From Adineta vaga (lineage: Eukaryota; Animalia; Rotifera): a DNA stretch of 64,000 bases. Of the stretch, positions 27,174 to 61,602 are shown in pieces (the first letter of the stretch is position 1; every line of letters starts with the position of its first letter). Below the pieces are notes generated by a model. That model was not told the DNA's origin, ran no database searches, and was given only the letters and a program-made list of their open reading frames with translations. The translations under genes were made by a program, and so were the position numbers. Location: contig CP075492.1 in assembly GCA_021613535.1 (NCBI GenBank), forward strand, positions 8,261,653 to 8,325,652, given 5' to 3'.

Positions 27174-27650
27174 ATGTCATCAACAACATCTTCAGCTTCT
27201 CCTAGTGCACAAACACGACGTTTAGTACTAGATTTAAATTCATATAATAAAAATCCATTACCGTACATTCGAGATCTTCAATATTCCGTGGATTCAGATG
27301 GTTTTAATCAATTGCATGGAATATTAATTGGTCCAGAGAAAAGTTCATACGAGAACGGTCAATTTCATTTTCGAATTAAATTTCTACTAGAGTATCCTTT
27401 TAAACCTCATGAATTCTACTTTCTGACACGAATCTGTCATCCAAATGTAGAAACAGAAACCGGTCATGCTTGTCATGATGAACTTCTTTCCTCATGGACA
27501 CCACAGGTATCAATCATGACTATATTTTCGAAAATGCATGGACTTCTTGCACAACCTGATTATAATAAATATTACGAACAAAAAGTCATTCCAGGAAAAG
27601 ATCCAAATACAGCTCGAGAATGGACAGAGAAATATGCAATGCCTGTTTAG
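27174..27650 (+). CDS. Ubiquitin-conjugating enzyme E2, UBE2L3 (UbcH7)-like and divergent. Single exon, 158 aa.
   Basis: The UBC fold is recognisable: GILIGPEKSSYENGQFHFRIKFLLEYPFKPHEFYFLTRICHPNVETETGHACHDELLSSWTP versus human UBE2L3, which I recall as [61 protein letters not shown]. The HPN motif and the catalytic Cys are aligned. Confidence 0.7.
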   Translation: MSSTTSSASPSAQTRRLVLDLNSYNKNPLPYIRDLQYSVDSDGFNQLHGILIGPEKSSYENGQFHFRIKFLLEYPFKPHEFYFLTRICHPNVETETGHACHDELLSSWTPQVSIMTIFSKMHGLLAQPDYNKYYEQKVIPGKDPNTAREWTEKYAMPV

Positions 27651-34654: not shown

Positions 34655-35619
34655 TCACTTTTGTTCATCATCGACATCTTGCACTTCATTATGTGCGTTA
34701 TCATTATCACCAGGCATATCCGTTGTCCATAATGTGAGATTGTCACGTAAAAGTTGCATAATTAATGTTGAATCTAAATGAAGGAAAAGAAAATTTTCTT
34801 TACATAAATAAAAAAATCTATTAAAACAATTCAAACCTTTGTATGTATCTTCATTGAGTGTATCCAATTCAGCAATGGCATCATCGAAAGCCTTAGAAAA
34901 GATGAAATTTCATTAGAAAAATCAATACAAATGAAGTCTAAACAAATGACATACTTGTTTAGCCAATCGACAAGCTCGTTCAGGTGTATTGAGAATTTCA
35001 TAATAGAATACCGAAAAATTCAAAGCTAAACCAAGACGAATGGGATGGGTTGGTGGTAATTCATTTTGAGCAATATCATTCGCTTTTGTATAGGCGACGA
35101 GTGAATTTTCTGCTGCTTCTTTTCGATCCTCTTGGGTTGCAAATTCAGCTTTATATCGATGATAATCACCTTTCATTTTTAAGTAAAAGACTTTACTTTC
35201 ACCTGATGCGGCATTTGGTAAAAGATTTTTATCAAGTAAATCAAGAATATCTTGACAAATATCACGTAATTCTTTTTCAACCTGAGAACGATATTTCTTT
35301 ATCATAGCCATTTTTGTATTTTCCGATTTATTTTCTTCTTTACTTTCAATATTAGTAATAATTCGCCATGATGCACGTCGTGCTCCAATTAAATTTTTAT
35401 AGGCCACGGAAAGTAAATTACGTTCTTCAACGGTTAATTCTTGATCCATTTTAGCAACTTTTTTCATGGATTCAACCATTTCTGATAAATTAAAAAACAA
35501 AACAAAGCAAATTAATTTTACGTTGTTAATTAAATTAGTTGTCTTTTCTTACCTTCATATCGTTCAGCTTGTTCAGCCAATTTAGCTTGATAGACATCAT
35601 CATCACGTGAGGCAGGCAT
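34655..35619 (-). CDS. YWHAE: 14-3-3 protein, epsilon type. Four exons: 35554-35619, 34955-35482, about 34838-34892, 34655-34774.
   Basis: [22 protein letters not shown] | [42 protein letters not shown]...[80 protein letters not shown] | [18 protein letters not shown] | [24 protein letters not shown]. This is near-identical to 14-3-3 epsilon. Confidence 0.95.
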
Positions 35620-37518: not shown

Positions 37519-38046
37519 ATCTTATTTTGAGTTGAACGTTTGTATGAAAAGTGAATAGATAGTGAAAAGTGCTGTCTATTGTCACACATTTACTATCACC
37601 GATATGGTTCAATGCATTTTGAAAAAGACCAATCAAAAGGACATATTCAAATCAAAAAGAAAAACGATAGAACGACGGGACAATGACCTCGTTAATGAAA
37701 ATTTAAAATGAACCATTGCGCTGTTCAATGTCTTTCGCTCTCTTGATCAATTTAATCAGCACTTGAAGCTATCAATTAGTTTCTTTTTTTAAAACGAACA
37801 TCACACTATACACATAAAACTACTTCTCCCATATAACCATTCTTTATTAAATATCGATTTCTCTCTATGCATGATAAATTACAGAAAACTAGATAACAAT
37901 CATGAAGATTGATACTTGATTTCTTCTTTTTTTTTTATTTTGTTTATTTTGACTGAAGAAAGATAAAATAAAATTTTTGTTCATTGCTCACTCGATATTC
38001 TTATCAAGAGAAAAAAGGTAGAGACAAAATGTTGTTTATTTGTATT

Positions 38047-38391
38047 TTATTTGCCCAATCCTGATGCAAATTTAGCAGATGCAAGTCGTTTACCCAAACC
38101 GGAAGCAAATTTTGCATGTGATAAACGTTTGCCAAGACCGCTAGCAAATTTAGCTGAAGCTAAACGTTTACCAAGACCGCTAGCGAATTTAGCTGAAGCT
38201 AAGCGTTTGCCAAGACCACTGGCAAATTTTGCCGAAGCAAGACGTTTATCCAAATCAGATGAATCTTCTGAACTGGTAATAACATCCACTGATTCATCAC
38301 TGTCAAGGTAGGTTGTTGATTGAACAGTGTTGAAATTGAAAAGAAACAGGACGGCGAGAAGACCAACAAGAACAATTAATTTTGTCTGCAT
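38047..38391 (-). CDS. Secreted neuropeptide precursor with a signal peptide, an acidic spacer, and five tandem KR-flanked copies of LASAKFASGLG (one copy is a LSHAKFASGLG variant). The predicted mature peptides are LASAKFASGL-amide. Single exon.
   Basis: MQTKLIVLVGLLAVLFLFNFNTVQS is a typical signal peptide. It is followed by an acidic propeptide (DSDESVDVITSSEDSSDLD) and then (KR-LASAKFASGLG) x5, ending ...GLGK*. Dibasic cleavage sites and a C-terminal Gly as the amide donor are present on every copy. The 39-bp DNA units differ at synonymous positions while the peptides are identical. Confidence 0.7.
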   Translation of the reverse strand: MQTKLIVLVGLLAVLFLFNFNTVQSTTYLDSDESVDVITSSEDSSDLDKRLASAKFASGLGKRLASAKFASGLGKRLASAKFASGLGKRLSHAKFASGLGKRLASAKFASGLGK

Positions 38392-40711
38392 ATTGTTTGA
38401 TAATAGAATAGTATTAGTAATAAGTTAATCGTAGGAACTAAAATCAGAAGAACAACACAATCTTCGTGTACTCAATCGTTTTTAAAAGATATATGAAAAA
38501 AAACAAGCGAATTCTCTGGAGAAAACCGAAATGAAAATACGTAACTGAAAGGGAGTGATGATGATGTATGGGAAAATTATATTTAAGTATGAATTATTTT
38601 TATGAAGATTCTATATAGTAGTTCCCGGAAAGAAAAACAGTTCATTGTTTTTCTGATAATGAAAAAAAGAAAGACTAATCATTCATTGAATATGTACGTC
38701 ATCATTTATGATAAGTATTTTCATATTTGTATTTGTTCGATTAAAATCTCTTGAAGAAATAAAAAAAGAGATAGATTCTTTTGAATGATTGATTTACATA
38801 CATACGTAAAGAAAACATACGAAATAGAAAATTAATGATGATTAATGAATAAATAGTGGAGGTGGTAATTGAAAAAGTAGGCGAATCTTTTCATCTGTCG
38901 ATTAGATAAATATACGTAATAATAACAAAAAGAAAAAGATTTATCCATAATGAATGAAACTAGTTTTTCTTGTGTGCAAAAAGAAAAAGAATACTTCATA
39001 TCTCTACTAACACTAAGAGAAAGAAAACGTCACAAACAATGAGTTTCGGATGTATTCTTCGTAGGAGAAATTCTTGATCTTTTGTTCTCAACTTCAAGAG
39101 ACACCGCAAACGTAACACATTATTCTATTTCAGATGTCAACTACATATTCTCTTCCAAATCTGATTGATCGTTCACAGAAGACTATTCAGTTAGTTTAGA
39201 ACGACGAAAGATTTTCCTTTCTTTTTTTTATTCTTTGACTTCAAGCAAGATAAGATCTCGATGTTCAATTGAGCTCGTCTGATCAATTTAAGATAGTATC
39301 AATCAAGGAAAAGATTGATAAAAAAAAGAAAACTTTTTCGCTATATGTCAAAAAATATTATTTGAAAGATAAGATTATTTACTCAAGTAGAATATTCTAA
39401 CCAATTGAATTCGTGATATTTATTGAGATGTTATCTGATCGAATGATCATCAAAGTTTTTTATGCCCTTCATATCAGTTTGTTGAGAAAAGTAACATGAA
39501 GGTGTTTCATTTCCATATAGTTTAACTAACAGTATCAGAAAATAGAAAGCTTTTGGGATTCATTGCTTACTGAAGTCATTTGTAGTTGGAATTATTGCTG
39601 AATAGATTATGAATTTATTGTGTTGATAAAATACAAGGTTAAATATAAATGTAGCGGGTTAGTATGCTCCTTTTTCTGGAAGAAGATCACATAGAATAGG
39701 TACAACAACAGAGAAATTGTTTCATTAATCTGCTTTTATTAAACATTGAAAACCAGAGAGAAAATGTTATGGGAAATCTTATACGAAGAATATTAAGCAA
39801 AGAAACAATTCTAATTAAAATTTTACATTTGATTTATAAGATGTTTTGATGAGATAAGAGTTCATCATAGAAAAGTTTGATTTGATACGCTATGATGCTT
39901 TGTATCAAAAAACAATGTTATTTTCCCAACATACCTTTTTTGATTAAGCAAAAAAGAATTCGATTGGATCATGCTATATTGATATGTTGAAACAGGATAC
40001 ACCATTCATTGGTATTCACGGACTCTTTATGCTTGTAGGCAAACGTTTATATTCTTCTCTTCATTCGCAGATGATTTCTAGTGGCTAGACCACTATTTTA
40101 ATAAAGTGTGTGAGGGAGGAAAGAGTCAAATTACACTTCGACGTAATCAAACTGAGTGTATCGACCTTCTAAGTGGAAATAATCCATAGAAAGACTTTTG
40201 TCTACTATTTATTTCATATCGATGCGATATCTCCATAATCCGACGATGACAATACTTCAAACCAATAGATTTCGAACTTCCATTTGATACTTACTATTAC
40301 AAATATTGATGCAATAACTTTTCTTACGATCGCATATGTTCGAGAACGACAGAATAAACCTGTCACTTCAAATTTGAATTGATGTAAGAATGTGTCATGT
40401 AATCTTCGCAAGACATTTCATTTCTTCAACATAAAGAAATTTCAAACACATTATTTCATTATTATTGCTGAATAATACCCAGTCAATATTTGCTATAATT
40501 TATTGAATAAAATACTTCGATAAATTTCATTTGCATTCGATCCGAGAAAAAAAGGTAAATTTTTTTTAAAAAGAAACCTACTAACGTATGTCTATAGATC
40601 ACAACGATTGACTTTTCGATTGTAAATTTACATAATAACTAATAACAACGGTTGTATAAATGAACAAAAGAAAATCAAATCAACTTTTTTTTCTTTTTCG
40701 AATTGCAGACA

Positions 40712-41798: not shown

Positions 41799-42699
41799 CG
41801 GTAGTCAATGATCTCTCGTTTTTTTCTCTTTTCAAGATTTCTTCATATCGATTAGTAAATCCATTAATCTATTCAAATAAATCAAAAAGAAATGTCAACA
41901 ATTTTTTCTTCTTTTTGATTGTATAGTTATTTTCCGATGTTATTCAAGATTTTGATATAGAATCGGCAAATATCAAAATGAAAATAAGGAAGTTATTTGA
42001 ATCTCTTTGATAGAACTTTCAAGTATCCCACGCTTTTAAGTACTTTTTCATTACAATCATTTTCATCACCAATTAGTTCAAATGACTAAACGACTAAATT
42101 ATTGAATTTATTTTGTATTATTATCATCACAGAAATCGATTAAAAATAGTTAAATATTGCTAACATTTGACATCTGTAAAACAGCTAGTGCATTTTTTTA
42201 TCACTAATGATCATCTTGAAATAAATGAGAAAACATTATTCATCTTTACATAATTATATTTATTATCTCACCCTTCCTTCGTTTTTTTTCTCTTTACGCA
42301 TGATTTATATTGATCAATTGAAATGAAACGATATGTTTTGTCTTGTCTTTTGACCATGAAGTGTATTATTCATCATCAGATAAATGAAGTTTTTTTTTGT
42401 CTAAACTATTCTTGATGGTCAATGAATTACCTTTTTTCTCAAATGCCTCAAGCAATTTCGTACCTATTTTCATTATGAAGTTTATGCACATAAAACAAAC
42501 TGCTCTTCTCACACTCGATAACAGACATCATGATTTCTTCATTTTGACCATGCTAAATGCAATAGAAACCCTTCAAGTTACACGTTTCATATCATTATCA
42601 TTAAAGAAATGACTCTATATAAATATCAGGTATCTTCAGCATATATTACTTTTTTCGTGAAATTTGTTTTCATCATCTATACACGTAAACCTATCAAAT

Positions 42700-43236
42700 C
42701 ATGCAATTTCCTCAACAACAACAACAATACGGTGCCTTACCAGCCCAAGTAAGATATTTTCAAAAGGAGATTTCGAATTAATTCTCTATTTCATTTAGTG
42801 TCAACAATGTCTCTTAACACCTGGTTATTCACAACCACAGCAACAATATTTTCCCAATAGTGGATACTATCCGCAACAAAACTTCAACAATCCATACCAG
42901 CAACAGCAATATCCATTCTATCCTCAACAGCAACAACAACAACAATATCCATTCTATCCTCAGCAACAACAACAACAATATCCATTCTATCCTCAACAGC
43001 AGCAACAATATTCATTTTATCCTCAACAACAATTTCAATTCTACCCACAACAACAGCAACAACAACAATGGCCAAATTTAGCTCAAGGACTTCTAGGACA
43101 AAATGCATATGGTTATCAACAATATTGGCCACAACAACAACACCGAGTTTTTGAACGCCGAAAAACTCCTACAACATCACCTGCTCGTCATGAACAAGAA
43201 AAACCGAAGAAAGTCTATGAACGACTTTATTCTTAG
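42700..43236 (+). CDS. Glutamine-rich repeat protein with about 6 QQQQ(Q)YPFYP units. Two exons: 42700-42750 and about 42806-43236.
   Basis: MQFPQQQQQYGALPAQ|gtaagat ... ttcatttag|CQQCLLTPGYSQPQQQYFPNSGYYPQQNFNNPYQQQQYPFYPQQQQQQQYPFYPQQQQQQYPFYPQQQQQYSFYPQQQFQFYPQQQQQQQWPNL...RVFERRKTPTTSPARHEQEKPKKVYERLYS*. Confidence 0.5.
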
Positions 43237-44129
43237 GGATTTTTCCATATGAATCAAAATAACATTCACTTATTCTTCTTCGTTTTTTTTTCTTACATTC
43301 ATAGGATTCATTTTTAAAACTTTTTAACTCATTTATTTTCTCAGCAGAATAAAAGATTTTCTTTTTATCAAATCACTTTATTTTACCGTCTAATCGATTG
43401 TCAAGAGTTCGACATTTACATGAAAGAGTATTTCTCCCTTTTTGATCTCTACTAGAAAAGACTTCTTTCTTTGCTGATTTGTGAAAAGAGGGAAAAAAAA
43501 TCAATTAGATTTCTGTCAATAAAACGTCATATGAAATATTCAAAAATAAATTTCTCTTAAGGTAACATAGTTAACAATCAAGTGTGTGTTTTTTTTTTCT
43601 CTTTTTTGAATCAACATGACTAGATTTGATAATTAATCATTGATTAAGTTTTTCTCTTCTTGAAAAAAAAAGGAAGAAGGAAAAATGTTCAAACAATACA
43701 TTTTAAATGAAAGGTCAATCAAACAACTTGTAGAAAGAAGAAGAATGATTTTTTCCAATGAATAATTCCATTGCATGTCTGATTTGATATTCATTTCGAC
43801 ATGTTCAATTTCTTCATTTACCTTTATCTTTTCCAAAAAAAAAGAAGAAAAAAAATCAAAGAAAATTGAACAGTAATGAGCGCAAGAAAACAAAACGAGA
43901 CAAAAATGACAATGACAAAAAAAACGAATGAATGAATGAATGATTGAATAGCAAATAAAAATGAAGAGAAAAAAAGTAAATACATAAGTCTGTTTTCCCT
44001 CCTTCTCTCTCTCTCTCTCTGCTTTGCTCTTTTTCTTTATACTTCATGCACATACACCGGGGTATCTGCTCGTAGCCTAGTCGAAAAAAAGAGGAATGAA
44101 TGATAACCATGACAAGCAAGAGAGTGAGA

Positions 44130-47100
44130 GATTTTAAACAGCAAACATTTGAGGAATATATAAATCTGATTCATTCAACGATTGAGATAAATCATCCAGA
44201 GCAACTAGATTTGTATTCATAGATGATGAAGGATCGACTGGCATTCCAGTTGGATCAGTAGTTCCATTTGTTGCATACATACTTGCGTACAGACGACGCT
44301 AAATTAATTTTGAGAAAAAGAATATAGACTATAATGATAAAGTTTCGCATACCTTCTTAGCTTCATTCTCCATCACTTCATAATGGTCGGCATAATGTAC
44401 ATTTGGATTCGTCGTTGTTCCATACATACGATAATGTTGTTGTTGCTGTTGTTGCTGTTGCTGTTGTTGTTGTAAAATATGACGAGAATGTTGTTGTTGC
44501 TGTTGTTGAGAAGGATCAAGATAAGGTAATTCAATCAGTCCATTCTTTCCTTTATTTGTGGTCACTAATGTTCGTCGAACGATAGGTCGTAATTTATACA
44601 ATGGAGGTTCAGGGGCGTTTGCTGTTATACATTTTGGACATAACCATGTCTCTGGGATATCATCACTAAATACACCTTCATTAGTAGGAGCATCTGTATG
44701 AGAAGACTAGAAAGAAGAAAAATACATTGTCAAGAAGTTTGTTCGATGTTACTATGAATAAGAAAACTATTGGATTTACATGAAAACATGGTAAATGATG
44801 AATTTCCATACAACGTTCACATTCATAAAGAATTTCTTCAGGTTTTAATTGAGATAATTTTCGAGAACCTTTCTTTTTCAAGCAAACTTGACATGATGCT
44901 GTTGAAGGTAGAATTGGAGCAATACATTGTTTAGTTAAACAACATTGTTTCATTTTTCCAACGCCACCAAATTTAGGCATATCTTTACAATGTACACATT
45001 CGGAACAATCATCTCGACAACATGGTTCACATTGTTTACATCTAGAAGATGAACAAAAACAAATCAGCATATAAAACGAAAATAATTGGCAAAATTCATA
45101 CCGAACACGTTTATGTCGATCTTTTGCAGTGGTACTTTTATCGGTTTGATAGTGTTGTTGAGTGGGAGATGTAGTTGGATTGTATTGATTATAATTATTA
45201 ACATACTGTTGTTGTTGTTGTTGTTGTTGCTGTTGCTGTTGTGGAGAATAATAATTTGAAGAATTAGAACTAGCTAATGGTCCACTTAATAGGACAGTTG
45301 TTGATGGATGTAATGTAACAACACTTGAACTTGGTTGTTGCATTGACAATGTATCATATTGATGAGAAGGATGAAGATGATGAAAAGATGGTTGTTGCAT
45401 ATCGTTGTCAACAGGATTTTTACGTTTTATGCCTTGAAAAGACTCCGTTTCGTTCTAAGAGAAAGAAAGATATACGCAATGAATGTTATATCATCAATGA
45501 AGAGAAGAAGAAAAAACACCATGTCGAAACACGATGACTTTTGTAATAGTTTATTTAGAGCTCCGACTTTATGTACATGTGTCTATCTCTATTGTTTTTC
45601 TTCAGCTTACTTGATTGTTAGTTGAATCGAACGAATAGTGATGATGATTATAGTTGTAATGAATTAGTGATTGACCAGTTACTGATAAATGGGGATCATC
45701 AGAAGCATGATCAATAAGAAGACGCTAGAAATAAGATTCACTTATATATTTATATTAAAGTCCAAGGTTAACAACAAATAGAATGAGAGGTCAAGTGAAT
45801 TTGACGTGTAAATATCTATTCAGAGGATATATAGACATTGTCATAGTTCTTTTCTATTGATCAGATTCTTTTAAATAGAAATTATTTAAACAGATGAAAT
45901 ATTAACGAGAGTATTTTATGTATATATTATCGAGGTCAAATAACTAACCCTCAAGAGAGAGTGAGTGAGTGAGAGAGAGAGAGATTTTGTTGGGTAAATT
46001 CTTTCAATTTAATTTACTATACCTCCATAGATTCCAAAAGTTGTTGTGGTTGAACGAGATCTTCCGGGATCGATTTGTCTTTTAATTTGCGTAAGAGAGC
46101 ACATAATGTTTTCAAACCGTCTAGTTCAAATTGAGTCAAATGTTGATGTGTTACTTCAATGTCTTTATTATTATTATGATTGTTCACTAGCAACAATTGA
46201 CTTGTTTGACAAGGTTTCAGATCTAAAGGCAGAGCAATAATATATATATATATATGTGGAAGAAATTGAGACAAAAGGGCTTCCTATTTGCTGCTCATCA
46301 TTTGAACAGAATAACAATGGACCTCTCGAAATACGAAGAAGGATAGTGAATATGAATAAGAAAAGAAAAAAACATCATAGTTTTCAAAAGAAAACGAGAG
46401 AGAAGAGATACCTTGATTTACAAACATATGTCTACCTGTCTGCACTAATCGATCGCAATTATAAAGATTTTTTACAGAACTAAAACTGCATACAACTAGA
46501 AATAAATCGAAGCAATGAACAAAGCAAAAAGGAGAGACAGAAACAGAGAGAGAAAAAAGACGACGAGTTTTTCCCTTTTTCGCTCCTATGCGCTCATTCA
46601 TAAAAGATTTGAGTAATTTGCACACAGATTTCTTTTCTTCTCTCTCTCCCTCTCTGTCTCTCTCTCTCTTTTCTTTGAGTGATCAGAAGACAGCAATAGC
46701 ATAGGAAAAGAGGGAAGGAAAAATTTTGAACAAAGAACAAGGCACAAGCGCGCATTGTGTAGCGAGAACATATTATTATGATTGTGTGTGTGTGATTGCA
46801 CAAGCGAGAGAAAGTGATTGACGAGTGAGAGAAAGAAACGAGAACGTCGAATGATCAGGTTGTAATAGCGGTAGTGCGTATTAATTATTCTCTTCTTTTT
46901 CCTTCTAGTTTTTTTTGTCATTTCAAATAAGAATTTCAAATTGATGGTCTTCACCTACTTCTCGAGATTTCCAAGTGCAATACATAGGCACTACTTGAAA
47001 ATTTATAATAAATATATGCGTAGTAGTTTGGCCAAGAAAAGAGAAGAAAAGAGAGAGAGAGAGTGGGTGAAAGATTTCATTTATTAATTAGCAAACACAA

Positions 47101-50100
47101 ACGTTTTTTCTTCTGCTTCTTCTTCTGTTTCTTAACAAAGAAAAATTAACAACAAAAATCAATGTTCTCATTGATGTTGATTCTTCTTTGATTTCTTTTC
47201 TTTTATTTACTAATGTTTGAGATTGTCAAATACGAGATAAACCAGAAGCAAAAAGAATTGAACTAAGTTAGTTCACTAAAACACGAACTATTTACTGCGA
47301 AGAGAAAAATACGTAAAATATTTGAAGAAAAAGAAATGTCATATTTCGTTGTTGATTATTTTCGGTTGGATGGACGATATAAAAAGAAATTCTTGCCTTT
47401 TTTTCTCCTTCTTCTTCTCCTTCTTCTTTTTCTCTTGGTTCGTTCTTTCCTTTCTCATTCAATTGAATGACAATTGTTCACAAAGTTAATCGATACATTT
47501 TTTTTTTATTTAGTCAATATAAAGAAAAGAAAGAAGAAAATCCTTGAAAAGCTGCTTACTAAAGCTGACTCGTTCGAATACATATCGACATGCTTTTCAA
47601 ACAATATTTTTCTATATACATACATATATCTTAAAAAGATGACGGTGATGATATTATCAATATACGAAATCATTCAGCATGCTAGTGATGATCGTCGATG
47701 TTGACGACAACATGCTTTTGTGTGCACTATACATTCGTCTCCTGAGACAGTATAAAATGTATTGACGTATGCAGGAAATAGTAACAGCAAAAAAATCATT
47801 ATGATCACCATCTTATTTTATCGTTTTCCTTCATCATTCTATACCCAAAGAGACTATTATCTGATTATCTTAACTATTTGCGCATTTCTCAATATAAAAT
47901 ACCAACTATTACCTCTAGAGCATTCTTCTTCTCATGTTCAAGAACAAACACGATTACAAATGACTATATATATCTCTATTTCTATTTCTATTGAAATCAT
48001 TCAACAAATACATCGAGCGATTCTCTAAGAAAAGACAATGTCAATATCGAACTTAAATAAAGTTTTTGTACAACGAAATGGATACTTCCATGTTTGCTAT
48101 CATCATGAGACAAGCACTTGCTAGATTACATACATACAAATATATGAAAAGAGGAAGAAGAGTAGATCCGTTCCGGAATAATTCGAAGAGGAAGACATCT
48201 AGAATTGATAATTGACATCATGAGGAAAAGAGGAAGAAGCATGCTTGACAAGAGAGAATATGTACGCTCTCTTACACTTGACGAAATCGATGATCGACAA
48301 CGATGATCAATAAGAGAGCGTAGTTCAAGAAAAAAAAGTTAGTTTCTTCTCTTCGGTTTCTTCATCTACATCGATTGATTATGCAAAAAGACAATTTCAT
48401 TCCTAATTCACTTATTTCCTAACTAATCTTCTAATTTTGCATAAAATTTACTTCGAAAAATCTATTTCAAGTCTTACACTTACTTTTTCGCTTGTCTGCA
48501 TATTTGCTCCAAATAAAGAGCAAATGCCGGAAAAATTAGGAGAGGAAGTGCTGAAAAAAATCAAAGCGATGTTAATCTTTATTCTTTTTTCTTGCTAATA
48601 ATAATAATAATAACAAGACTTTCCGATTAACTTTTATTCATAAGATACAATTGAGTTCATTCAAATAGTTCGTATACAAAAGCTTGTATACCTTCTTCTT
48701 TGATTTGAATTTGTTCTCAATAGAAGAAAAAAATGAATAAACTTGCTGTCTTAATTGACGAGATAGAACAGAGTACTCCTAATTCGATTATCTCGGATTG
48801 CAGTCTTCAAATTAACATGTTTGATTTTTTCAACGATTAAATAACATTCTCATAATTTATAGAGATCAAAGTGATGAGGACGGCGATCGAACGATCAAAT
48901 ACTTGGAATAAGTAATTCTCGCTCGCACCCACTTATTTCTATGAGTAAATCAAAAAAAAATAAATCTGTTCTACATCAATAATAGAAACAGCGTTAAAAG
49001 GCCCACTAACAACATCATCTTGTAAACGTATGTGTGCACGCAATAGAGAAAGAGAGAGAGAGAGAGGGAGAGAGGGAGAAAGATGGAAAAAGAAAGTCAG
49101 AATGAAACTACATATAAGAGGTAGATGACGGCGTCACTATTGTTTGATGTCTTTATCTTTCTTGATAATATTGTTCAAAAAAATTGAATGAAACGAACAA
49201 ATTTGAAAAGCAATCATCTTTTACCGGAAGAAAAACCTTCTTAAGAGTTTTGCTTTAATTGATTCTTTTATCTTTACCTGAAAGATTGATTGGAAGATCT
49301 TGACTACTTGCATCTGTTTCTTGTTGTTGCTGCTGCTCGGCATATTCCAAACTGAAATAGAAGTTCAAGAACAGATTCAATAAGAAGACTGGTTTTTATT
49401 GACAATGTCATAGTTTCTGTTTGTTTTCATTGATGAAGAAAAAACAATAACTACAAATTCTTTTCTAATAAATTGAATAAATGAAAGATGATTAACTCAA
49501 ATAGTGATAGAGAAAATATCTCGATTGATTGAATTTCAATTAAGATATGACTTAGAACTGAAATCTTACCAATCATCTGCAATATGTGTGATACCAGTAA
49601 GACGATGTACATAACGTTGAATAACATACCACATACTTTCAATAAAGTACGGATATCGAAATCGATCAGGAACTCGAACTTTTCTTTCAATTGTCCATAC
49701 TTGAATTTGCATGGGAATTTTGAAAGAATTTAAAAAATTGCCACCAAACACAAGAGAATCTTCTAGTGTATATACCGCATGTATCCAACCTGATGGTAGA
49801 AAAAATGTCCATCCAGCTTCGAGAATAATCATTTGACAATCATTGGATGCGCATATATCAGCAAAAAAACATTCATTTTGTCTGCCAGATAAAATCCATT
49901 CTTCATACAAACGTAAATGAGATTCAGTTGGAGGTAATAACCAAAAAACTTTCTTTCCTTTCAATACATGATACCATACAGATGATCCACCTGATGAAAT
50001 AGAATTCAGTTAGTCAATCATAACAGATCATCATTTATATATATATATATATATACCCATATCAATATGAAAATCGGTGAAACATTTGGCAACAGACATG

Positions 50101-53265: not shown

Positions 53266-54388
53266 ATTTCTTCTTTAGATTCCTCCTTTTTTCAACGATA
53301 GTCGATCATTTCAAAAACATTCTTCTTTTTTATTCAGGTGAAATATAATCGATTCTTTCTAGAAACACCGAAAGGCATTCATTTCTCCGTCGCAGACCAT
53401 ACAAAATGCTTCACAGGTAAGACAGTTACGCAGGTATTTTCATGGTAACAGAGAGTAACCGCAATAGATGCGAATATATTTATTTTAGTACAATGTTTTA
53501 TAATTTTCACTACTAGATTGTGAAATGTTACTTCTTGAGATAATAATTCTGTCTATTCAAATAATTTGAATTCAAGGAATCGTAAAATTATATAGAGCTT
53601 GTATATGTACGTAAATGTTAATCTGACGAAGACTTTGAATTCTTTTGAAACTATCGTTTTGTTATTTATGTCTATCGCATTAGTTATGATCAAGACATAA
53701 GAGTTCTCAAATTCATAAAAATATATGACAAACAATCGGAGACACTTTCTTCTTTGATACTGTCAAAAAAAACAATTTACTTTGCTATCCAATATTGACA
53801 TTAGAAATTCATAAGTGCTGAAGAATTGACAAAAGAATTTTTACCGGGAGGAATAGATTTACTCACAAGAAAGCGTTCTCAAAACCACTACATCCACACA
53901 TCCGGTTTGAGGAGACAGCTAATTTAGGTTAATGGAAGTTTTAAAAACATATTTGAGTAACGAGCCTTTTGAAAGTATATAAAAAAAGGTTTGAAAGAAC
54001 GATTCAGATATTGAGATCGATAATTATGACCAAGTATTAGAAACCATTATTGCAAAATCAGATGTATAAATTGTAGCTATTGTATATATTAATGATAAAA
54101 GATTACACTTCTATAAGACAGATGGAGAATACATTCTGTAATTTCTCTATTGTGAAAAAGTGATTGATTCAGTTTTAAAGTATACAAACGTCGTCTTTAC
54201 AAAATACGATCTACTAAGTAGCTTTTTGGATACTTTGGTGTGATTCGCTCTAAGGACCTGTTCTCATGAGCATTTTAAGGAGAAATTAGACACTTGTTTT
54301 TTTTCTTTCGAATAGAAGTCGATCAGTTGATGGTGATTCTGTACCATGTGAATTTAAGAATCTTCGTATAAATTCAAATGCAAGTTAT

Positions 54389-57300
54389 ATGATATGCAAA
54401 AATATTAATACGAAATTAAGATCACAAAGAGAAATTAAAGGAGATCCCATAGAGCAGTCTAATATAGAACAATTAAGCAGTTATGAACGTAAAATGGCAT
54501 ATTTTATACGTTTTCATCTACGAGATATTTTAACCAGTGATCATCTTCATGTTTGGTTTAATATTCAGACAAAATCATTAGAAGAAATTCAAGATCGAAG
54601 TCAAATATTGAGAAATGTTCCGGAAGACATCGATGTTGTCTATTGTTTTGGATCGATGCTTTCATATGATACATTTATTGAACACTCTAATGATCGTTCT
54701 CTTGCTCGTATTTGTCTTCAAAAACGCTCTAAAGCAATTCAATTAAAAATAGGATCATGTGTTATATTGATTGAACTCAGAAATATTGATTCACAACTTC
54801 TAATCAATCATTCAACTAAGGATAACTCTATACAAGTTATTTTTATGCTTAAATCACCACCGATTATCGAACAACTACAAGGACAAATTCATCGGTAAGT
54901 TAGAGAAGTATTTCATTGGATATAAATCATCTTTACTAGACTGTGTCTTTTCTCATCGTAAATTCGAACGTAAAAACAAAATACGAAATATTTTCTTCTT
55001 GAAGTTTTTATATCTTCTAACTGCATGACATCATTCTTCAAACTAAAATCCTAAAAATGTCATAGGTTAATTTCTATAATTTATGTATTTAGTGATAGAA
55101 AAGCAATGATCGAAGGAATTCCACATTGCAGTGATTTGCTCATTCGTTTCTTTCCAGCAAGTCATGCATGGATATTCTTACGAGAATTACCAATTGCTGG
55201 ATATACTCGCAGACCATCCGGTAATTTATTTCATATAAATTTTGCTATATTTGCATGGCAAAAAGATCCCAGTTATTTACTTCCTATGGGTAAACCAACG
55301 TACAATTCGTACTATGAATCTTATGCTATGGAAATGCTCTGGTCATTGGGTTATATCTATCAAGATAAATACAATGCTGATTCACAAGTGATGAACAATA
55401 TGCGAAATAAGAATTTCTATGATTTAGGTTGTAAAATTTGGCATAATTTAAAAATAAATCACTGTTATCGTCTTCGAGATGCATTAAATGATCGAAAATC
55501 ACAAAATAATACTAAGAATTCAAGTGGATCATCAGAATTGAAAGAAGTAGCATTTGTAATATTAACACCATCTCGTATTGAATATCAACCAATGCCAACA
55601 ACAATTTCTCATCGAGGTTTTAATTTTTACGATTCTGAACAGTGGTTGCTTGTTCATATACGAGATCATAATGGAATGGATAAGATTCGTGAATTAGATT
55701 TACAGAATAAAGTACGATTCAAGAATTTCATGATACAAGGTATTCGTCGAAATGATCGTTTGTATCGATATTTTGGTTCATCGAATAGTCAAATGAAAGA
55801 TCAAGCTGGTTGGTTTTTATCTCTTCCTCAAGGAGAAACGATAGAAAAAGCACGTGAAAAACTTGGTGAATTATCAAAAATACCCAATGTATCTACATAC
55901 ACGGCAAGACTTGGTTTGTATCTATCAACATCACGATCTGCTGAAGTAAGATTACTTTTCAATTAACTTGATTCTTTCTAAAAGATTATATGGTATGATA
56001 ATTAATATTCATTTTTCACATCTAGATCAAGCTAGTGAAGAAAGGCGAAGCACAAGATAAAGACGGAGGATCATATATAAACCAATCATCAGGATTCTTT
56101 TCTTCTCTGATAACGTTCCAAGAAGGTATTATAAATGAAGTCTGAATGAAGTATTTCTCAGGGAGATATTTTTAGGTTTTTAAATCTGAAAATAAACCAA
56201 TAGAATATATGGCTATTATTATACCGGATGAGAAGCATAATGACTTTAACTTTACTGATGGTTGTGGTAAAATTTCATGGGCTCTTGCCAAAAAGGTTGC
56301 GTTGAATATCGGTATAAAAATTAGCGAGAATGTAAGTTGTATCAAAGCTTTTCAAACATTCTACTCAATGTATGATTCTAGTCGGATGTACCATCGGCGT
56401 TTCAAGTTCGAATAGCTGGCTGCAAAGGCATGTTATCTATAGATCCCAAATCAAAAGGCAAAGGCAAATTGTACTATATTTTGGTTCGAAAGAGTATGGT
56501 CAAGTTTGATAGTGATGATTGGACTCTGCACATTGTCGACCATTCGCGTCCTAGTAAGTGCTCAATAAAGCAGACAATCTTCATAAACTTTCTATTTAGT
56601 GCCACTAAGCTTGAACAATCAAGTTATTCGTTTATTGAGCGACTTGGGTATTAGTAATGGTATGTTCGAATCGATTCAACAACGATGTATCGACCAGAAA
56701 GAATTCTGGCATCCACCACCAAAAAGTTATCTGAATGCAATGGATTCTCTTGATCAACAAGCAATTGAGGATAAACGAAAACAATACAAAAATGCGTATG
56801 TTTCTTGTTTTTTTTATAGTATCCATATACTAGAATGCAGTTGAAACTTTTCAGAAAACATTTTCTTGAACGAAATAAAATACCATTACCATTAAATGAT
56901 GGTCGATTCCTATTTGGAATTGCAGATGAAACAGGAACATTGAAACCAGGACAATGTTTTATCCAGTATCGGGATCTCAGGAATTCACCAAGATCAAAAA
57001 TATATCATGTACATGAAGGTACAATTGTAACAGTCCATATTTCTAAAACATGATTCATTGTTCGAAACAAATTTATTCTAGGAACTGTTATAGTGACAAA
57101 AAATCCATGTCTTCATCCTGGAGATGTACGTAAACTTGAGGCAGTTTGGGTAGAAGCACTAGAGTCTTGTATACGCGATTGTATTGTATTCAGTACACAA
57201 GGTCTTCGGCCAAGTTTCAATGAAATGGCTGGTTCCGATTTAGACGGCGATCAATACTGGGTCTATTGGGGCGATGAACTCAAAGTTACACGACCCGTTG

Positions 57301-57905
57301 AACCACTATTATATCCATCAGCCGAGAAAAAGCCTAGCGGTTCTATAACTAATGATCTCATTGTCGATCATGTACTTAATTCATTTACAAATAGTGTCGT
57401 CGGTACGATCGGTAATTTACACAAGGTTATTGCTGACAAAGATCCACGTGGCACCCTCTCTCCAGAATGCAAAGAATGTGCATCACTCTTTGCTCGAGCA
57501 ATTGACGCATGCAAAACCGGTGAAGAAATTCCCAAAAATCGAATTAATCAACTGAAGGAAAAATATTATCAAACATGTCCAACCTGGATGATGAAATTTG
57601 ATAAACCAGTTATGGATCCACCAAGTACATCAATCAACGAAATTCTTTTTCGCAAAGCTCAAGAATCATGGCTAGATGAAGATTGCTATCATGATATTGT
57701 TCGACCATTTCAAGGTGTTGAATTTCCTGAAGAATTAATTGCAATTGATATTGACGATACAAATGAAACAGAAGGAACTCAAGATGAAAGTCAAATCCAA
57801 CGTATGGCTATTATATTATGCTGCAAATCATGCTGTTTATGCATATTTTGGACTGCAATCGTAATAGTCCTTTTATACGGTATTTTAAATTGGTGGAAAA
57901 AGTAA
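54389..57905 (+). CDS. Cellular RNA-dependent RNA polymerase of the RDR family (as in RRF/EGO-1/QDE-1), with 8 or more exons. Approximate exons: 54389-54895, 55093-55943, about 56026-56140, about 56185-56336, 56384-56554, 56598-56794, about 56822-56994, 57082-57905.
   Basis: The last exon contains GTVIVTKNPCLHPGDVRKLEAVWVEAL...VFSTQGLRPSFNEMAGSDLDGDQYWVYWGDEL. DLDGD is the RDR catalytic signature, and ...KNPCLHPGD... is the conserved motif preceding it. Upstream exons give RLYRYFGSSNSQMKDQAGWFLS, IIPDEKHNDFNFTDGCGKISWALAKKV, DVPSAFQVRIAGCKGMLSIDP, LNNQVIRLLSDLGISNGMFESIQQ and LNDGRFLFGIADETGTLKPGQCFIQY. All are canonical RDR blocks, and they join with consistent phases. The exon 3/4 junction is the only one I could not resolve cleanly. 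Confidence 0.9.
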
Positions 57906-59333
57906 CAATAATACACTGTTTGGTTGATTTCATTAGTATGTTAAATATGTCGCATGGATTGAAATTTCATATAATATACAAAAAATCAGAATTCTTTAGC
58001 ATTTAGATTCCTCTCACATAATTAATTGACCAAGTCTTTTTTTTCTGTACTAATGAGTATTATTCAATAAACTTATTCATAAATCTATAGTTTTCACTGT
58101 AATAAAACGGTTTTAAAATACGATAAAAGACAATTCTTGCAGCTCATGTATATTATCATGCAAGAAAAGAAAAGAATATCCTTATATCATATAGCAGTTG
58201 GTGCCTCTGTATAAATGCAAATGAACTACATCATCATTGATACAACAGCAGTAGTCACCACATATATAAGTGTTTCACTTCGCTCATTCTTCATTTTCTT
58301 TCGGTCACGTACGACACTTAACTTGATAGATATGGTTCATTAACAGATCAACCACATCATCTTAAAATCATAAACAAATTGTCAAAAAAGATGAGCATGT
58401 CTTCGAAGAAAAACGATTAGTCAATTTTTCTGAATAATCAACCTGTCTTCGTTTATTTATCTAAACGAGTTCATCTCTTTTTCGTTGGTGAAAAGAAATC
58501 AATGATGCAGCAAACGTTGGCACTATATAAATAGCTCAATTTTTCTTCAATATTTCAGAATCAATTGTCAATCCGTAAGTACCATTCAATATGAGGTTAA
58601 TCTTCGAACAGGTTCACATTTGTTTGCTGATGATTAACAAAAAATTCATAGAAGCAAGGATCTGTGTACCTGCACGATATTAGCCGAGATTTGACGATAT
58701 ACTTCTTTTTAAACCATATAATTTATCCGAAAAAAATTGGAATTAAACAGATTTTCAAGAAATAGGCTCATCACCTGTAAACTGAACGGATTCGATCTAT
58801 TTTCAGTTGCCAGGTCTTTGGCCCTCTTGCGAGAATCTCTTTGCATCGATGATAGATATATTTTCTTTTTCTTTCTTTAATAGATCATTGTCTGAAAGAA
58901 AATCTGCGCTTAAAAATGCTAATTTTTTTAAGAATATATATACAAACAGATGTATTTTTACATATGATCAAGGAAAGATGGAAATCAATTGTTCGTATAG
59001 ATTTGCTGTTGACTTTATTTTATTACACAACATTGTCGAAAGTAGATATTTAAATTTTTTTATTTTTGAATAGCAAATGATGAAACTAATGAATTCTTCT
59101 TCTTCTTCTTCGTCTTTATTTACAATCAAAAAACCATTGCACATGAAAAAATGTTCGAAAAACACGAAGGATAAATTGATTCTATTTACAGACAAGAAAA
59201 ACGAGACAAACAATGAGAATTAGGCTCAGATAAACACATTGTTATATATATATATATTAATTACATTCAATAACAAATTTGACAATAGATATCACAAGAT
59301 GGAGAATTCAATTGATTTTTAGTCAGAAAAATT

Positions 59334-61602
59334 AACCTTGTGATGAAATTTGTGGTGGACGTAATAATTCTTTCTCTTGATCTTTAGTTAGTGCATACAA
59401 CAGATGTTTATTAACTTGACGCTAAAAAAAACACCGAAAGATATAATTATAATATGCACTCGAACGAAAATCTTACTCTTCGGTTAAAAAAGAATAATTC
59501 TATGACGACAATAATAGCAATCAATGATAGTAATGCAATGATGATGTAAACTAATTTCATCGATTCATAGCCGTAACGACCTTTTTCAAGAATCATACTA
59601 GCACGTTGCAATCGATGTAATGTTTCATTGTTCAGTGTAATTGTCTGAAAAGATAATCATAAAAAAAACAGAAATAGTAAAAGAAATGATTGATCCAATC
59701 TTTACTTGATCAATCCACATCATTGGAATCAATCGTCGAACAGCACGTGTATGAGTAGGTCTAAACATACCAACGAATTCGGTGTCTTTCTTGAGAAAAG
59801 AAAAATCTTTCGTCTTACTCAGTCGATCCATCTGGATTAAGTCTAAGACGATCAATCCAAGCATTTGTACTTAATTGAATACGTAATTGAGCTCGAACTG
59901 GTGTACCAGAGATTGGTTCGAAATATATAGTTGATTCATGTTTATTAAAATCCGGTTGAAAATTAATATTTGTCAATGATGAATTATGACCATACATATG
60001 TGGTTTTGATAAAAAGACAGTTTCCGTAGGAATTTCAGCTATAAAGACAAGTATGAATAAATAATTTAGATCAAGAAATTTTCTCATACCAGAAAGACAT
60101 TTTGTAATATCGAGTTTATCTGCTTCGGGACAAGTTTCATCCATTTGTGGACATTGTTCTACATCAATTAATTTTAAAACATATTCATGTAACATATCAA
60201 AACCAAATTTAGACACTGTTCGATTGTATCGAAGTTGGACAGGTCTAAAAGTATCAAATTAAATATTAACGAAATTTTCTATTCTATCTGTACAAACCGA
60301 CAAAAATCAGGTTGAAATACATTGAGAACTTTTCGATTGGGTGGATTTCCCAATGGTGGAAAAGTTAAACCATCTAAAATCAAACCAAACAAATTCTTTT
60401 CAATCGTTCGAAATATATATTTTCTTACCAAAAATATCCGTTCGCCAATCGTGATTTGTTGTTTTAAATGGTGTACTAAATTAAATATTATATTCATATA
60501 ACATAAAACTAGTAAATCAAATTATATTCTTTACTATTCAGTTTCAAAATCAATCATTTGTCCTTTCATTGAAGAATTATTAATACCAGTATGAATAGTA
60601 AAATTAAATCCATTTGTTCCATTGTACTAAAGAAGTAATGATAATCATTAATCGAATTTTTCGTATTTGATCGATTCTTACTCGATAGATAAATCCATAT
60701 TTATCTCTGTTAGGTCCTTGCATTCGTGATGAAATTGCAGCAAATATGGGAGAAATATATCCTTCTAATTTATCAATCGCTTTTGAATAGTTAAAGGCAT
60801 TATTTCCACCAAGAATATAGAAGATAGGATCAGCCACACGACCAAATTTTGTTCGAAACATCTATAAAAATCATTGCTTTTTCTTCAACAAAACAATTAT
60901 GTGTCTTTAAGAAATTAACTTACAACACGAAGTATATCAACGAAGGCACCTTCTTGGTTGAGTATAGTTTCATTGTAATCACCAACGAGTGAATATACGT
61001 TCAATTGAGTAATGAATTTTCGAATTATTATTTAACCATTTAACATTATTCTTTTTAACGGTAACTCTATAATATACAAAAATTGCAATCATAATACTTG
61101 TTCACAATTTCATAGCAATCTAAAGACAACTTACCTGTACATAAACGGCAGTGTCTCTTCAAAATTCATCATTGGATTATTTGTATCGGTCATAATATCC
61201 ATATAATTTGTTATATTAAATAGCCGATAAGCACGTATGGTTTGAATCGGTGGAATAGTCCAACTCTCATTTCCATCGGATGAGGGTGCTAAACGTATTT
61301 TCTAAACAATGATGAAAAAAAAAGAATCAATTGCTTTTCATCTGAAAAAATGGATTTTGATTTACTTGAAGAACTTTTTCTTGAATAATATGTTCGACAC
61401 GTGGCCATGTTGATACAAAAATAATAAAAGGTACAAAAAGTAACAGTAGAAATAATACTTCACATGTTACACGAGCAGGAAGTGAACATATTCTTAGATT
61501 TCTTTTCGTTGGAATTGTACTATAAAAAGAAGAAGAGAAAAAAACGAATTACAATTAAAGAAAATCTTCAGAAATAAACACTCACGGAGTAGTCGATTGT
61601 GA
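59334..61602 (-). CDS. CD36/SCARB-family scavenger receptor (class B; croquemort/LIMP-2-like), about 9 exons. It has an N-terminal TM, a large ectodomain and a C-terminal TM.
   Basis: Exon 1 is MEQQSQSTT. Exon 2 is ...VLFLLLLFVPFIIFVSTWPRVEHIIQEKVLQ (the TM1 segment). Exon 3 is KIRLAPSSDGNESWTIPPIQTIRAYRLFNITNYMDIMTDTNNPMMNFEETLPFMYR, compared with human CD36 which I recall as [44 protein letters not shown]. Later exons give EPISGTPVRAQLRIQLSTNAWIDRLRL (CD36 [22 protein letters not shown]) and a C-terminal TM IIALLSLIAIIVVIELFFF. Confidence 0.85.

Follow-up and report, generated by a model that had tools for sequence, protein, structure and literature searches.

Gene content of the locus and structure of the RdRP gene

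The window analysed here, a 64-kb stretch of the Adineta vaga genome, carries on its + strand a gene for an RNA-dependent RNA polymerase (RdRP) of the cellular RDR family. It is flanked downstream by a CD36-family gene (PF01130, E 2e-10) and upstream by a KDM2-like gene with JmjC-helical and CXXC domains, both on the − strand, the two neighbours that the preliminary description of this DNA had named; genes for 14-3-3, glycogen phosphorylase and further host proteins lie in the same window. GC content was uniform at 29–35% over the window, the composition of the RdRP gene was host-like, and no second RdRP copy was found within the 64 kb. The synteny comparison that had been proposed at the outset showed that the RdRP(+)/CD36(−) order is common to this locus and Adineta steineri.

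The gene models and splice choices given below are predictions from the sequence and from comparison with homologues. Joining eight GT..AG-bounded exons within positions 54389–57905 (+ strand) gave an uninterrupted frame of 980 codons, and the gene is predicted to start about 1 kb further upstream, in a mini-exon at 53406–53416 (ATGCTTCACAG followed by GTAAGA) that is joined to 54316. The short spliceosomal introns proposed in the preliminary description were retained, with GT..AG boundaries, while its count of at least eight exons became nine, the 11-nt exon included, with eight spliceosomal introns. The predicted features are as follows.

53406–53416, + strand: exon 1, 11 nt, ATG CTT CAC AG followed by the donor GTAAGA
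54316–54894, + strand: exon 2, acceptor gaatag, coding for RSRSVDGDSVPCEFKNL... and the earlier-proposed first exon; donor GTAAGT
55093–55945, + strand: exon 3, in which the bdelloid-specific N-terminal region ends and the Pfam RdRP domain starts (about 55562)
56026–56125, + strand: exon 4 as it ends in model A (to 56139 in model B); IKL..K.GE....G.PY......FFS is kept in homologues
56204–56331, + strand: exon 5 as it starts in model A (from 56176 in model B)
56382–56553, + strand: exon 6, with conserved SDVPSAFQVRIAGCKGMLSIDP...
56600–56795, + strand: exon 7, from splice joining and homologue alignment
56855–57018, + strand: exon 8, from splice joining and homologue alignment
57082–57905, + strand: exon 9, a single exon for the catalytic core, C-terminal region and tail, with the stop codon at 57903–57905 included
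58066–58071, + strand: candidate poly(A) signal AATAAA, a sequence match 160 nt past the stop, with a second at 58101

The ATG of exon 1 is the first in-frame ATG past a stop codon at 53346–53348, the frame being open only from 53349. Support for exon 1 at 53406–53416 comes from a block of 21 nt that is almost unchanged at the A. steineri locus, where ATACAAAATGCTTCA[C/A]AG|GTA is kept (L001 8854–8864) between poorly conserved flanks, from the amino acids SV[D/E]GDxVPCxFKNL, which lie upstream of the ATG at 54389 and are kept in Adineta and Rotaria homologues, and from an independently annotated Adineta ricciae protein that reads ...LHRSRSVDGD... and has an identical exon 1/2 junction (LH|RSRSVDGD). 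The predicted protein has 1008 aa in model A and 1022 aa in model B rather than the approximately 880 aa first proposed, and the long N-terminal region that it had been thought to lack is present, without a recognisable domain.

Splicing and reading frame at the exon 4/5 junction

The two models differ at the exon 4/5 junction, which is ambiguous as judged from the sequence. In A. steineri the donor and the acceptor of this junction are both in phase 0. Here, the homologous acceptor (56175|56176) is retained in phase 0 while the strong donor (56125|56126) is in phase 1; joining the two leads to a stop two codons on, and with the ancestral pair 56125/56176 out of frame the stop falls at codon 517. 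The frame would be saved only by alternative splicing, through the choice either of a weak acceptor (1008 aa) or of a 36-nt intron (1022 aa). In the second case (model B), exon 5 begins at the ancestral acceptor 56175|56176 and adds the conserved VFKSENKPI.

The preliminary description had named frame disruption as something that would weaken a functional reading, and this junction touches that point in part, the homologous splice pair being out of frame while in-frame alternatives exist. A change of 1 nt that breaks the frame with the ancestral sites could mean that the gene has only very recently become a pseudogene or that the locus is mis-assembled, a reading favoured by the phases (0/0 in A. 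steineri versus a phase-1 donor and an early stop here) and by a run of five T just inside exon 5, directly after acceptor 56175|56176: four T would restore the frame, and a homopolymer miscount such as T5/T4 is typical of long-read assembly error. We nevertheless consider this very improbable, given the two in-frame splice choices (1008 and 1022 aa), an annotated protein of Rotaria sp. Silwood1 with a comparably short exon 4/5 junction, the integrity of all remaining exons and of every catalytic motif, and a dN/dS of 0.30 over 720 codons, including exon 9, the last exon, downstream of the junction. The RdRP gene is under purifying selection.

The polymerase domain

A Pfam scan of the 980-codon frame gave a single match, to PF05183 (393.9 bits, cut-off 23.8, E 1.8e-117, covering positions 1–581 of the 582 in the profile), and viral palm-type RdRP families gave none. 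This agrees with the original assignment to the cellular RDR family with a DLDGD motif, and the blocks on which that description had drawn were present in exon 9.

57099–57131, + strand: KNPCLHPGDVR, an RDR motif aligning to vtknpclhpgdir of RDR2
57231–57263, + strand: GSDLDGDQYWV, aligning to sGgDLDGDQffV of RDR2
57237–57251, + strand: catalytic DLDGD, with D787, D789 and D791 (1008-aa numbering)

The three aspartates were nearly invariant in an 11-sequence bdelloid alignment, and chance cannot account for the RDR-family match together with these motifs. Among solved structures, Arabidopsis RDR2 (PDB 7eu0/7roz) was the best match (E 2e-55); it is of the DLDGD type and shares tKNPClHPGDiR and the surrounding blocks, although the match is limited to the polymerase domain, in three stretches that are about 28–30% identical overall, and the N-terminal region is not alignable. 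Neurospora QDE-1 (PDB 2j7n, E 1.5e-13) belongs to the same superfamily and its catalytic loop aligns, but it is far more distant, with about 135 residues aligned. By homology to these two solved proteins, a double-psi beta-barrel fold is predicted; the full-length AlphaFold2 model, built from a 7-sequence alignment, reached a mean pLDDT of only 38. The corresponding motif of QDE-1 is DYDGD, not DLDGD.

The possibility that the sequence is viral, a transposon or a contaminant, and not a host gene, found no support and is effectively refuted. Its sole Pfam match is to a cellular family, it has eight spliceosomal introns, it sits among CD36, KDM2-like, 14-3-3, glycogen phosphorylase and further host genes in a window of uniform GC content that is syntenic with A. 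steineri, and zero viral-RdRP HMM hits were obtained in bdelloid proteomes (Nowell et al., PMC7943196). With ordinary metazoan neighbours, conserved synteny and purifying selection, the earlier view of a genuine intron-containing host gene stands.

The N-terminal region and comparison with other RDRs

A region of about 350 aa (~353 aa) precedes the Pfam domain, and no homologue of it was detectable outside bdelloids. Pfam gave no match to PF25359 (PH_met_RdRP), the PH-like domain that lies N-terminal to the polymerase in metazoan RdRPs, at E ≤0.01 in the N-terminal 365 aa, while the Globodera RDR matched it at 9.6e-42 and a spider RDR matched it weakly. A profile of the region returned nothing at E ≤10 from PDB sequences, and an iterative HMM search that started from the PH region of Globodera returned only its seed. 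When the N-terminal 337 aa (MICKNIN start) were modelled, pLDDT was 46 overall, with a beta-rich module at about residues 105–200 (pLDDT 65–81). A Foldseek comparison of this model with the PDB produced lectin-type matches (TM ~0.12, rmsd ~14 Å), which were rejected as meaningless; the region may still conceal a cryptic PH-like fold.

Plant RDRs (RDR1, RDR2, RDR6) are soluble and carry an N-terminal RRM, and to our knowledge they have no C-terminal transmembrane segment; a plant-type N-terminal RRM was not detected in the bdelloid protein. Metazoan RDRs (Globodera A0A183CBH6, of the RRF-1/EGO-1 type, and those of spider, crinoid, bivalve, hemichordate and amphioxus) were the top non-bdelloid profile hits, at about 290–318 bits, and share the Pfam domain. 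They differ in being 1200–2000 aa long and in carrying PF25359, to which nematodes add DUF7752 and DUF7636, none of these being detected in the bdelloid protein. They are also without a hydrophobic C-terminal tail, and their monophyly with the bdelloid RdRP lacks support in either of the two trees described below.

Relatives and origin

The nearest proteins were bdelloid RdRPs, from A. steineri (67% identity) and Rotaria (61–64%), with bdelloid orthologues overall at 59–67%. A word-indexed search of 5.8 billion proteins returned the same 7–8 proteins whether the query was the single protein, a 7-sequence profile or an 11-sequence profile, and an exhaustive search of representative sequences reached RDRs beyond the bdelloid set. 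No identical protein was found in the databases searched; the A. vaga protein UJR27363.1 is a paralogue (32–49% identity) and not the same gene. The A. steineri orthologue, As10x_p|g14064.t1 (UniRef 'RNA-dependent RNA polymerase'), is 67% identical over 95% of the length and shares with this gene the exon layout, as far as it was compared, the CD36 neighbour on the downstream side, the N-terminal region and, in its genomic sequence, the Cys-rich hydrophobic tail. It differs in species (dS ~0.8) and at the exon 4/5 donor, which is one phase off here. The public model of this orthologue has neither exon 1 nor the tail, both being annotation choices.

In a neighbour-joining (NJ) tree of 142 sequences and 393 columns, bdelloid-only clades of 7, 10 and 12 tips holding this RdRP had bootstrap values of 100, and the gene grouped with Adineta (63), then Rotaria (100), then Didymodactylos (70), so that the orthologues in these genera follow the species tree. 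No candidate sister to the bdelloid clade had a bootstrap value above 26, the nominal sisters at this level being metagenome proteins, another Didymodactylos RdRP and a sponge. In the published maximum-likelihood (ML) tree, As10x_p|g14064.t1 is among the tips of a 28-tip clade made up solely of bdelloid sequences (support 100), which meets the remaining tree at a node with 33% support. The gene is a member of either RDR I or RDR II, the two RDR clades that Nowell et al. (2021) described as specific to bdelloids. It is a further member of the published bdelloid expansion of about 39 RdRPs per genome (Nowell et al. 2021, eLife 10:e63194, PMC7943196), since the alignment and tree of that study include its A. 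steineri orthologue. The preliminary description had called RDRs patchily distributed among animals; for a bdelloid gene that emphasis was overstated, and because earlier work had shown RdRP genes to be very abundant in this group, the find itself is largely ordinary.

An ancient horizontal gene transfer (HGT), in which a non-metazoan RDR was captured by the bdelloid ancestor and domesticated, would leave the present function unchanged, and Nowell et al. (PMC7943196) explicitly keep open 'an ancient HGT gain' for bdelloid RDRs. It would fit the position of the 28-tip clade, which is not nested in the amphioxus/nematode group and joins at the node with 33% support in the published ML tree, the distances, by which plant RDRs are as close as animal ones, and the N-terminal 350 aa without homologue outside bdelloids, in which PF25359 was not detectable. 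A long branch may, however, explain the placement of the clade, and the top non-bdelloid profile hits with a nameable source were crinoid, bivalves, spider, hemichordate and amphioxus. The gene moreover has 8 spliceosomal introns and a host-like composition, occurs in every bdelloid genus sampled, the early-branching Didymodactylos included, and Pinzon et al. (2019, PMC6396948) found little to support the idea that animals gained eukaryotic RdRPs by HGT. We regard such an acquisition as unlikely.

A conserved hydrophobic C-terminal tail

The protein ends in a strongly hydrophobic segment preceded by a cysteine cluster.

57804–57902, + strand: C-terminal tail MAIILCCKSCCLCIFWTAIVIVLLYGILNWWKK, a predicted tail anchor, with the Cys cluster (57819–57842), the hydrophobic helix (57843–57896) and a basic end

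The Kyte–Doolittle (KD) mean over 19 residues was 2.65 at residues 985–1003 of 1008, with no value above 1.26 in the rest of the protein, and the residues that follow the helix are NWWKK, then the stop. A KD of at least 2.0 at the C-terminus arose in 57 of 20000 shuffles. The N-terminal 30 residues are hydrophilic (mean KD −0.43), and by the hydropathy scale alone there is neither a signal peptide nor a second transmembrane segment, no 19-mer outside the tail exceeding KD 1.26. In the AlphaFold2 model the tail helix had a pLDDT of 70–76. The hydrophobic tail is kept in A. steineri genomic DNA, in Rotaria, in Didymodactylos and in one A. vaga paralogue; its layout is the same in orthologues and sister paralogues, with the preceding Cys cluster in the orthogroup, and it was absent from the non-bdelloid RDRs retrieved.

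The tail has the layout of a tail anchor, namely a single hydrophobic helix no more than about 40 residues from the C-terminus with a very short basic end, and judging from hydropathy and conservation it looks like a membrane anchor. The hepatitis C virus NS5B protein is an RNA-copying polymerase that a lone helix at its C-terminus fixes to the cytosolic side of a membrane. The likeness to NS5B is an analogy only, without homology: that enzyme has an unrelated right-hand palm fold as against the double-psi beta-barrel, and serves viral replication rather than host silencing. The searchable literature yielded neither a eukaryotic-type RdRP that is anchored in a membrane nor a description of this tail. 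The published bdelloid analyses (Nowell et al. 2021, PMC7943196) were confined to the Pfam-domain region, so that the tail would have escaped them.

Proposed function

We consider it likely that the locus holds a nuclear, vertically maintained bdelloid gene for a PF05183 RdRP of about 1008–1022 aa, for which its family suggests a role in small-RNA silencing and its sequence suggests a membrane tether. By analogy with plant RDR1/2/6, nematode RRF-1/EGO-1 and fungal QDE-1, the enzyme would copy single-stranded target RNAs into complementary RNA, and the product would, as in the family at large, feed Argonaute/Piwi-bound small RNAs that silence transposons and foreign genes. The bdelloid RdRP route possibly stands in for a missing ping-pong piRNA amplification; according to published work, the ping-pong signature is absent in A. 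vaga, and in bdelloids RdRP and Argonaute/Piwi genes are expanded together and the transposable element (TE) load is low. If its sequence is a guide, the Cys-rich hydrophobic tail would insert post-translationally in the ER or the mitochondrial outer membrane, and the polymerase would then be active while bound to the cytosolic side of that membrane.

Among animals, an RdRP does not in every case produce secondary siRNAs that can be detected, and RdRP function is labile (Pinzon et al. 2019, PMC6396948), so that a role as an RNAi amplifier extrapolates from the family. The protein might instead be a functional RDR that is not a secondary-siRNA amplifier, making long dsRNA for another use, regulating specific mRNAs or sensing viruses at a membrane. 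Besides this lability, there are reported precedents, a tick RdRP pathway that controls an ERK component and not TEs (PMC10062562) and Paramecium RDRs with non-amplifier roles (PMC12876857), and a membrane tether would place the enzyme at the replication sites of +RNA viruses. We find this alternative somewhat unlikely, as the co-expansion of RdRP and Argonaute/Piwi genes, the low TE load and the lack of ping-pong in A. vaga fit an amplifier.

Taking the amplifier and the predicted anchor together, we put forward, tentatively and with somewhat less than even confidence, that the RDRs of this orthogroup and of its sister paralogue lineage (Adineta, Rotaria, Didymodactylos) make up a subfamily of integral-membrane enzymes. 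Bound to the cytosolic side of the ER or the mitochondrial outer membrane by a tail anchor, to which the orthogroup would add a palmitoylatable Cys cluster, they would amplify small RNAs on a membrane platform, which could replace the mitochondria-associated ping-pong/Zucchini machinery that is seemingly missing in A. vaga.

Within an expansion that was already known, what is new here is a corrected gene model (a hidden 11-nt exon 1 and a protein of about 1008–1022 aa), the tails missed by public annotations, the splice and frame ambiguity at exon 4/5, and a conserved tail-anchor-like C-terminus common to one subclade. Should the anchor prove real, no cellular RDR before these would have been known as an integral membrane protein, and they would open to experiment the question of the site and the partners of small-RNA amplification without ping-pong in bdelloids, which bears on the control of transposons in an anciently asexual lineage that carries much foreign DNA.

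An intact gene for a cellular RNA-dependent RNA polymerase

Positions 54389–57905 of the forward strand hold a succession of ORFs with GT..AG borders which, when spliced together, gave a frame of 980 codons without interruption. The product matched the Pfam family PF05183 (cellular RdRP) over the whole profile (positions 1–581 of 582, 393.9 bits, E 1.8e-117). Its matches among solved structures were Arabidopsis RDR2 (7eu0/7roz, E 2e-55), Neurospora QDE-1 (E 1.5e-13) and another two RdRP entries, 7w82 and 7w84. The RDR-family gene claimed in the preliminary description was thus confirmed, and the two motifs reported with it were located. The polymerase domain is canonical, and the window contains one RdRP copy.

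Features of the RdRP gene (window positions)
53406–53416, forward strand: coding mini-exon of 11 nt (exon 1), ATGCTTCACAG|GTAAGA
57099–57131, forward strand: KNPCLHPGDVR motif
57231–57263, forward strand: GSDLDGDQYWV motif
57804–57902, forward strand: C-terminal tail, ...QRMAIILCCKSCCLCIFWTAIVIVLLYGILNWWKK-stop, at the extreme C-terminus

Upstream of the ATG first proposed as the start (54389), the reading frame is open and codes for RSRSVDGDSVPCEFKNL, a stretch kept in Adineta and Rotaria homologues. The acceptor in front of it (gaatag|A, 54315|54316) agrees in position and phase with that of the A. steineri locus. The mini-exon lies 899 nt upstream of this acceptor, within a 21-nt block (ATACAAAATGCTTCA[C/A]AG|GTA) that is near-identical in A. 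steineri, while its flanks are poorly conserved, and the predicted exon 1/2 junction (...LH|RSRSVDGD...) is present in an independently annotated A. ricciae protein. Since the upstream frame is conserved and the mini-exon is supported, the gene has nine exons, with introns of 899, 198, 80, 78, 50, 46, 59 and 63 nt (GC 21–30 % in introns vs 35 % in exons). Of the earlier estimate of at least eight exons with short introns, the multi-exon structure stood, while the count is nine and the first intron is long. The protein has 1008 or 1022 aa, depending on the splicing of exons 4 and 5 (models A and B), instead of about 880, and the long N-terminal region thought to be missing is present as ~353 residues ahead of the Pfam domain.

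No Pfam match was found in the N-terminal ~350 aa, and no relatives of this region were detectable among solved structures. In this the protein differs from a nematode RDR, which has the 'metazoan RdRP-associated PH-like domain' (PF25359), and from a spider RDR, which matches PF25359 weakly. An AlphaFold2 model built from a 7-sequence alignment was too poor for fold assignment.

The exon 4/5 junction

At the exon 4/5 junction of A. steineri, both splice sites are in phase 0 and enclose an intron of 51 nt. The homologous acceptor is retained in the window (56175|56176, phase 0), followed by the conserved VFKSENKPIEY. Because the window's strong donor (56125|56126) has phase 1, joining the ancestral pair runs into a stop at codon 517. 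In model A a downstream AG (56203|56204) preserves the frame at the cost of nine conserved residues, and the resulting junction is similar to the one annotated in Rotaria sp. Silwood1; model B preserves it through a weak donor (56139|56140) and a 36-nt intron. A T5 homopolymer opens the exon directly after acceptor 56175|56176; since T4 at this place would bring the reading back into frame, the assembly may be in error here.

Relatives, neighbourhood and selection

The nearest proteins were all bdelloid (A. steineri, 67 %; Rotaria spp., 61–64 %; A. ricciae, 59 %), and no identical protein was found in the protein collections searched. An exhaustive HMM search gave 4847 matches at E 1e-3 or better and brought in Didymodactylos carnosus and one A. 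vaga protein, a paralogue with 32–49 % identity. An A. ricciae protein of 925 aa (P0007), which carries the annotation 'Ion transport domain-containing' (PF00520 and others), matched 22–24 % of the RdRP at 59–60 % identity; the gene model is probably chimeric, joining an RdRP fragment to the adjoining channel gene, or else the fusion is real.

Other genes in the window
8500–12800, reverse strand: adaptin N-terminal region (PF01602)
13189–14023, forward strand: UAA-family transporter (PF08449)
15177–18733, forward strand: glycogen phosphorylase, multi-exon (PF00343, E 3.2e-155)
20843–21263, reverse strand: NBR1-type Ig domain (PF16158)
27174–27650, forward strand: ubiquitin-conjugating-enzyme-like (UBC E2), single ORF (PF00179)
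27841–30255, reverse strand: leucine-rich-repeat protein with transmembrane segment (PF13855)
34658–35548, reverse strand: 14-3-3 protein (PF00244, E 6.5e-86)
44684–50009, possibly to 53274, reverse strand: KDM2-like gene
59628–60861, reverse strand: CD36-family gene (PF01130, E 2e-10), downstream of the RdRP and convergent

Both flanking genes that had been named, CD36 and KDM2, were recovered, the latter by a Jumonji helical domain (JHD; PF17811, E 2.6e-07, ORF 49569–50009), a CXXC zinc finger (PF02008, E 2.2e-06, ORF 44684–45454) and JmjC-like sequence between these two ORFs. As in the window, a CD36 gene follows the A. steineri orthologue on the opposite strand (16768–19970 of L001, the orthologous locus in CAJNOI010000030.1), so the RdRP–CD36 order is shared with A. 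steineri; it was absent in Rotaria socialis, where the neighbours are others. A reverse-strand ORF ending at 53274, possibly part of the KDM2-like gene, lies only ~130 nt from the RdRP start codon, and the two may share a divergent promoter. The remainder of the window is, by its Pfam matches, ordinary gene-dense host DNA, with uniform GC (29–35 %); for the UBC-like protein, the gene-position index gave no exact match. Comparison with A. steineri gave a dN/dS of 0.30 (dS ~0.8; 720 codons, last exon included). Taken together, the eight GT..AG introns, the host-gene neighbours, the synteny and the dN/dS bear out a genuine host gene: the locus is an intact, conserved gene for a cellular RDR, under purifying selection in an Adineta-like bdelloid.

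Three other loci were noted. A reverse-strand ORF (38050–38424) has a signal-peptide-like start (MQTKLIVLVGLLAVLFLFNFNTVQS) and then five tandem copies of L(A/S)(S/H)AKFASGLGKR, each peptide ending in Gly followed by Lys-Arg; it has no Pfam match and fits the pattern of a putative amidated neuropeptide precursor, and a forward-strand ORF (37967–38308) is its mirror image. A low-complexity Q/P/Y-rich ORF (42799–43233, forward strand; ...QQQYPFYPQQQQQQQYPFYPQQQ...) overlaps further ORFs, both in different frames and on the reverse strand, and GC skew dips sharply there to -0.25 (bin 42001–44000). Three consecutive reverse-strand ORFs (19385–20148), with the motif HHHHYDWWMFP among them, gave no Pfam match within the E 1e-5 cut-off and look like a conserved gene.

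A hydrophobic C-terminal tail

The tail is the only strongly hydrophobic segment of the RdRP (Kyte–Doolittle 19-mer mean 2.65, at most 1.26 elsewhere), and of 20000 shuffles only 57 had a C-terminal 19-mer averaging at least 2.0; no signal-peptide-like N-terminus was found in the protein. One exon codes for both the tail and the catalytic motif. The layout of the tail, in which a Cys cluster is followed by ~20 hydrophobic residues and then by two to four basic ones before the stop, recurs in Rotaria sp. Silwood1, R. socialis, two environmental fragments and the A. steineri genome. In the public A. steineri annotation, an intron called at L001 ~13560–13740 makes protein P0001 end in ...NERLDTFD, where the genomic frame continues to ...RCRSCCTCICCLLFVIIIVSFFFAFWKKK-stop without interruption, and the annotation therefore loses the conserved tail; P0001 also begins at an internal Met, missing exon 1. 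In Didymodactylos and the A. vaga paralogue the C-terminal tail is hydrophobic but has no Cys cluster; the more distant bdelloid paralogues retrieved have no such tail, and only 1 of ~130 non-bdelloid RDRs retrieved comes close (P0073, Kyte–Doolittle 1.64). By the usual criteria the segment is a predicted tail anchor, a reading we hold tentatively, at somewhat below an even chance. No mention of it was found in Nowell et al. or other searchable literature.

Phylogenetic position

We built a distance tree from 393 columns of the catalytic region in 142 sequences, with 100 bootstraps. In it the window RdRP clustered with its A. steineri and A. ricciae counterparts (bootstrap 63), then with Rotaria (100) and Didymodactylos (70), followed by two bdelloid paralogue lineages (100 each); no sister of this bdelloid-only clade had a bootstrap above 26. 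Ranked by profile score, the top non-bdelloid matches with a nameable source came from animals (crinoid, oyster, scallop, clam, spider, hemichordate and amphioxus); by distance, plant RDRs were as close as animal RDRs. The A. steineri orthologue is As10x_p|g14064.t1 in the alignment of Nowell et al. 2021 (PMC7943196), whose ML tree, when parsed, placed it in a bdelloid-only clade of 28 tips (support 100, stem 0.48). The assemblage that this clade joins brings together plant RDR1/2/6 with fungal, amphioxus, nematode, monogonont and other bdelloid sequences, and is supported as monophyletic at only 33 %. Given these low values in both trees, the origin of the clade, a question already posed in print, may be vertical or horizontal.

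The preliminary description had called RDRs patchily distributed among animals. Bdelloids have a mean of 38.9 RdRP genes, most of them in two bdelloid-specific clades, RDR I and RDR II (Nowell et al. 2021, PMC7943196); the family is known, large and published, and the orthologue is already in the literature. The biological surprise is thus small, though the core call was right.

Proposed function

Extrapolating from the RDR family, we infer a role in small-RNA silencing, in which the enzyme would copy single-stranded RNA into complementary RNA that would feed the silencing pathway. The function of RdRPs is labile among animals (Pinzon et al. 2019, PMC6396948). It has been suggested in print (Nowell et al. 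2021, PMC7943196) that their expansion in bdelloids makes up for the ping-pong piRNA amplification that A. vaga lacks. The most interesting feature of the window RdRP is its tail, with which, judging from sequence, the tailed subfamily would work tethered to an organelle membrane.
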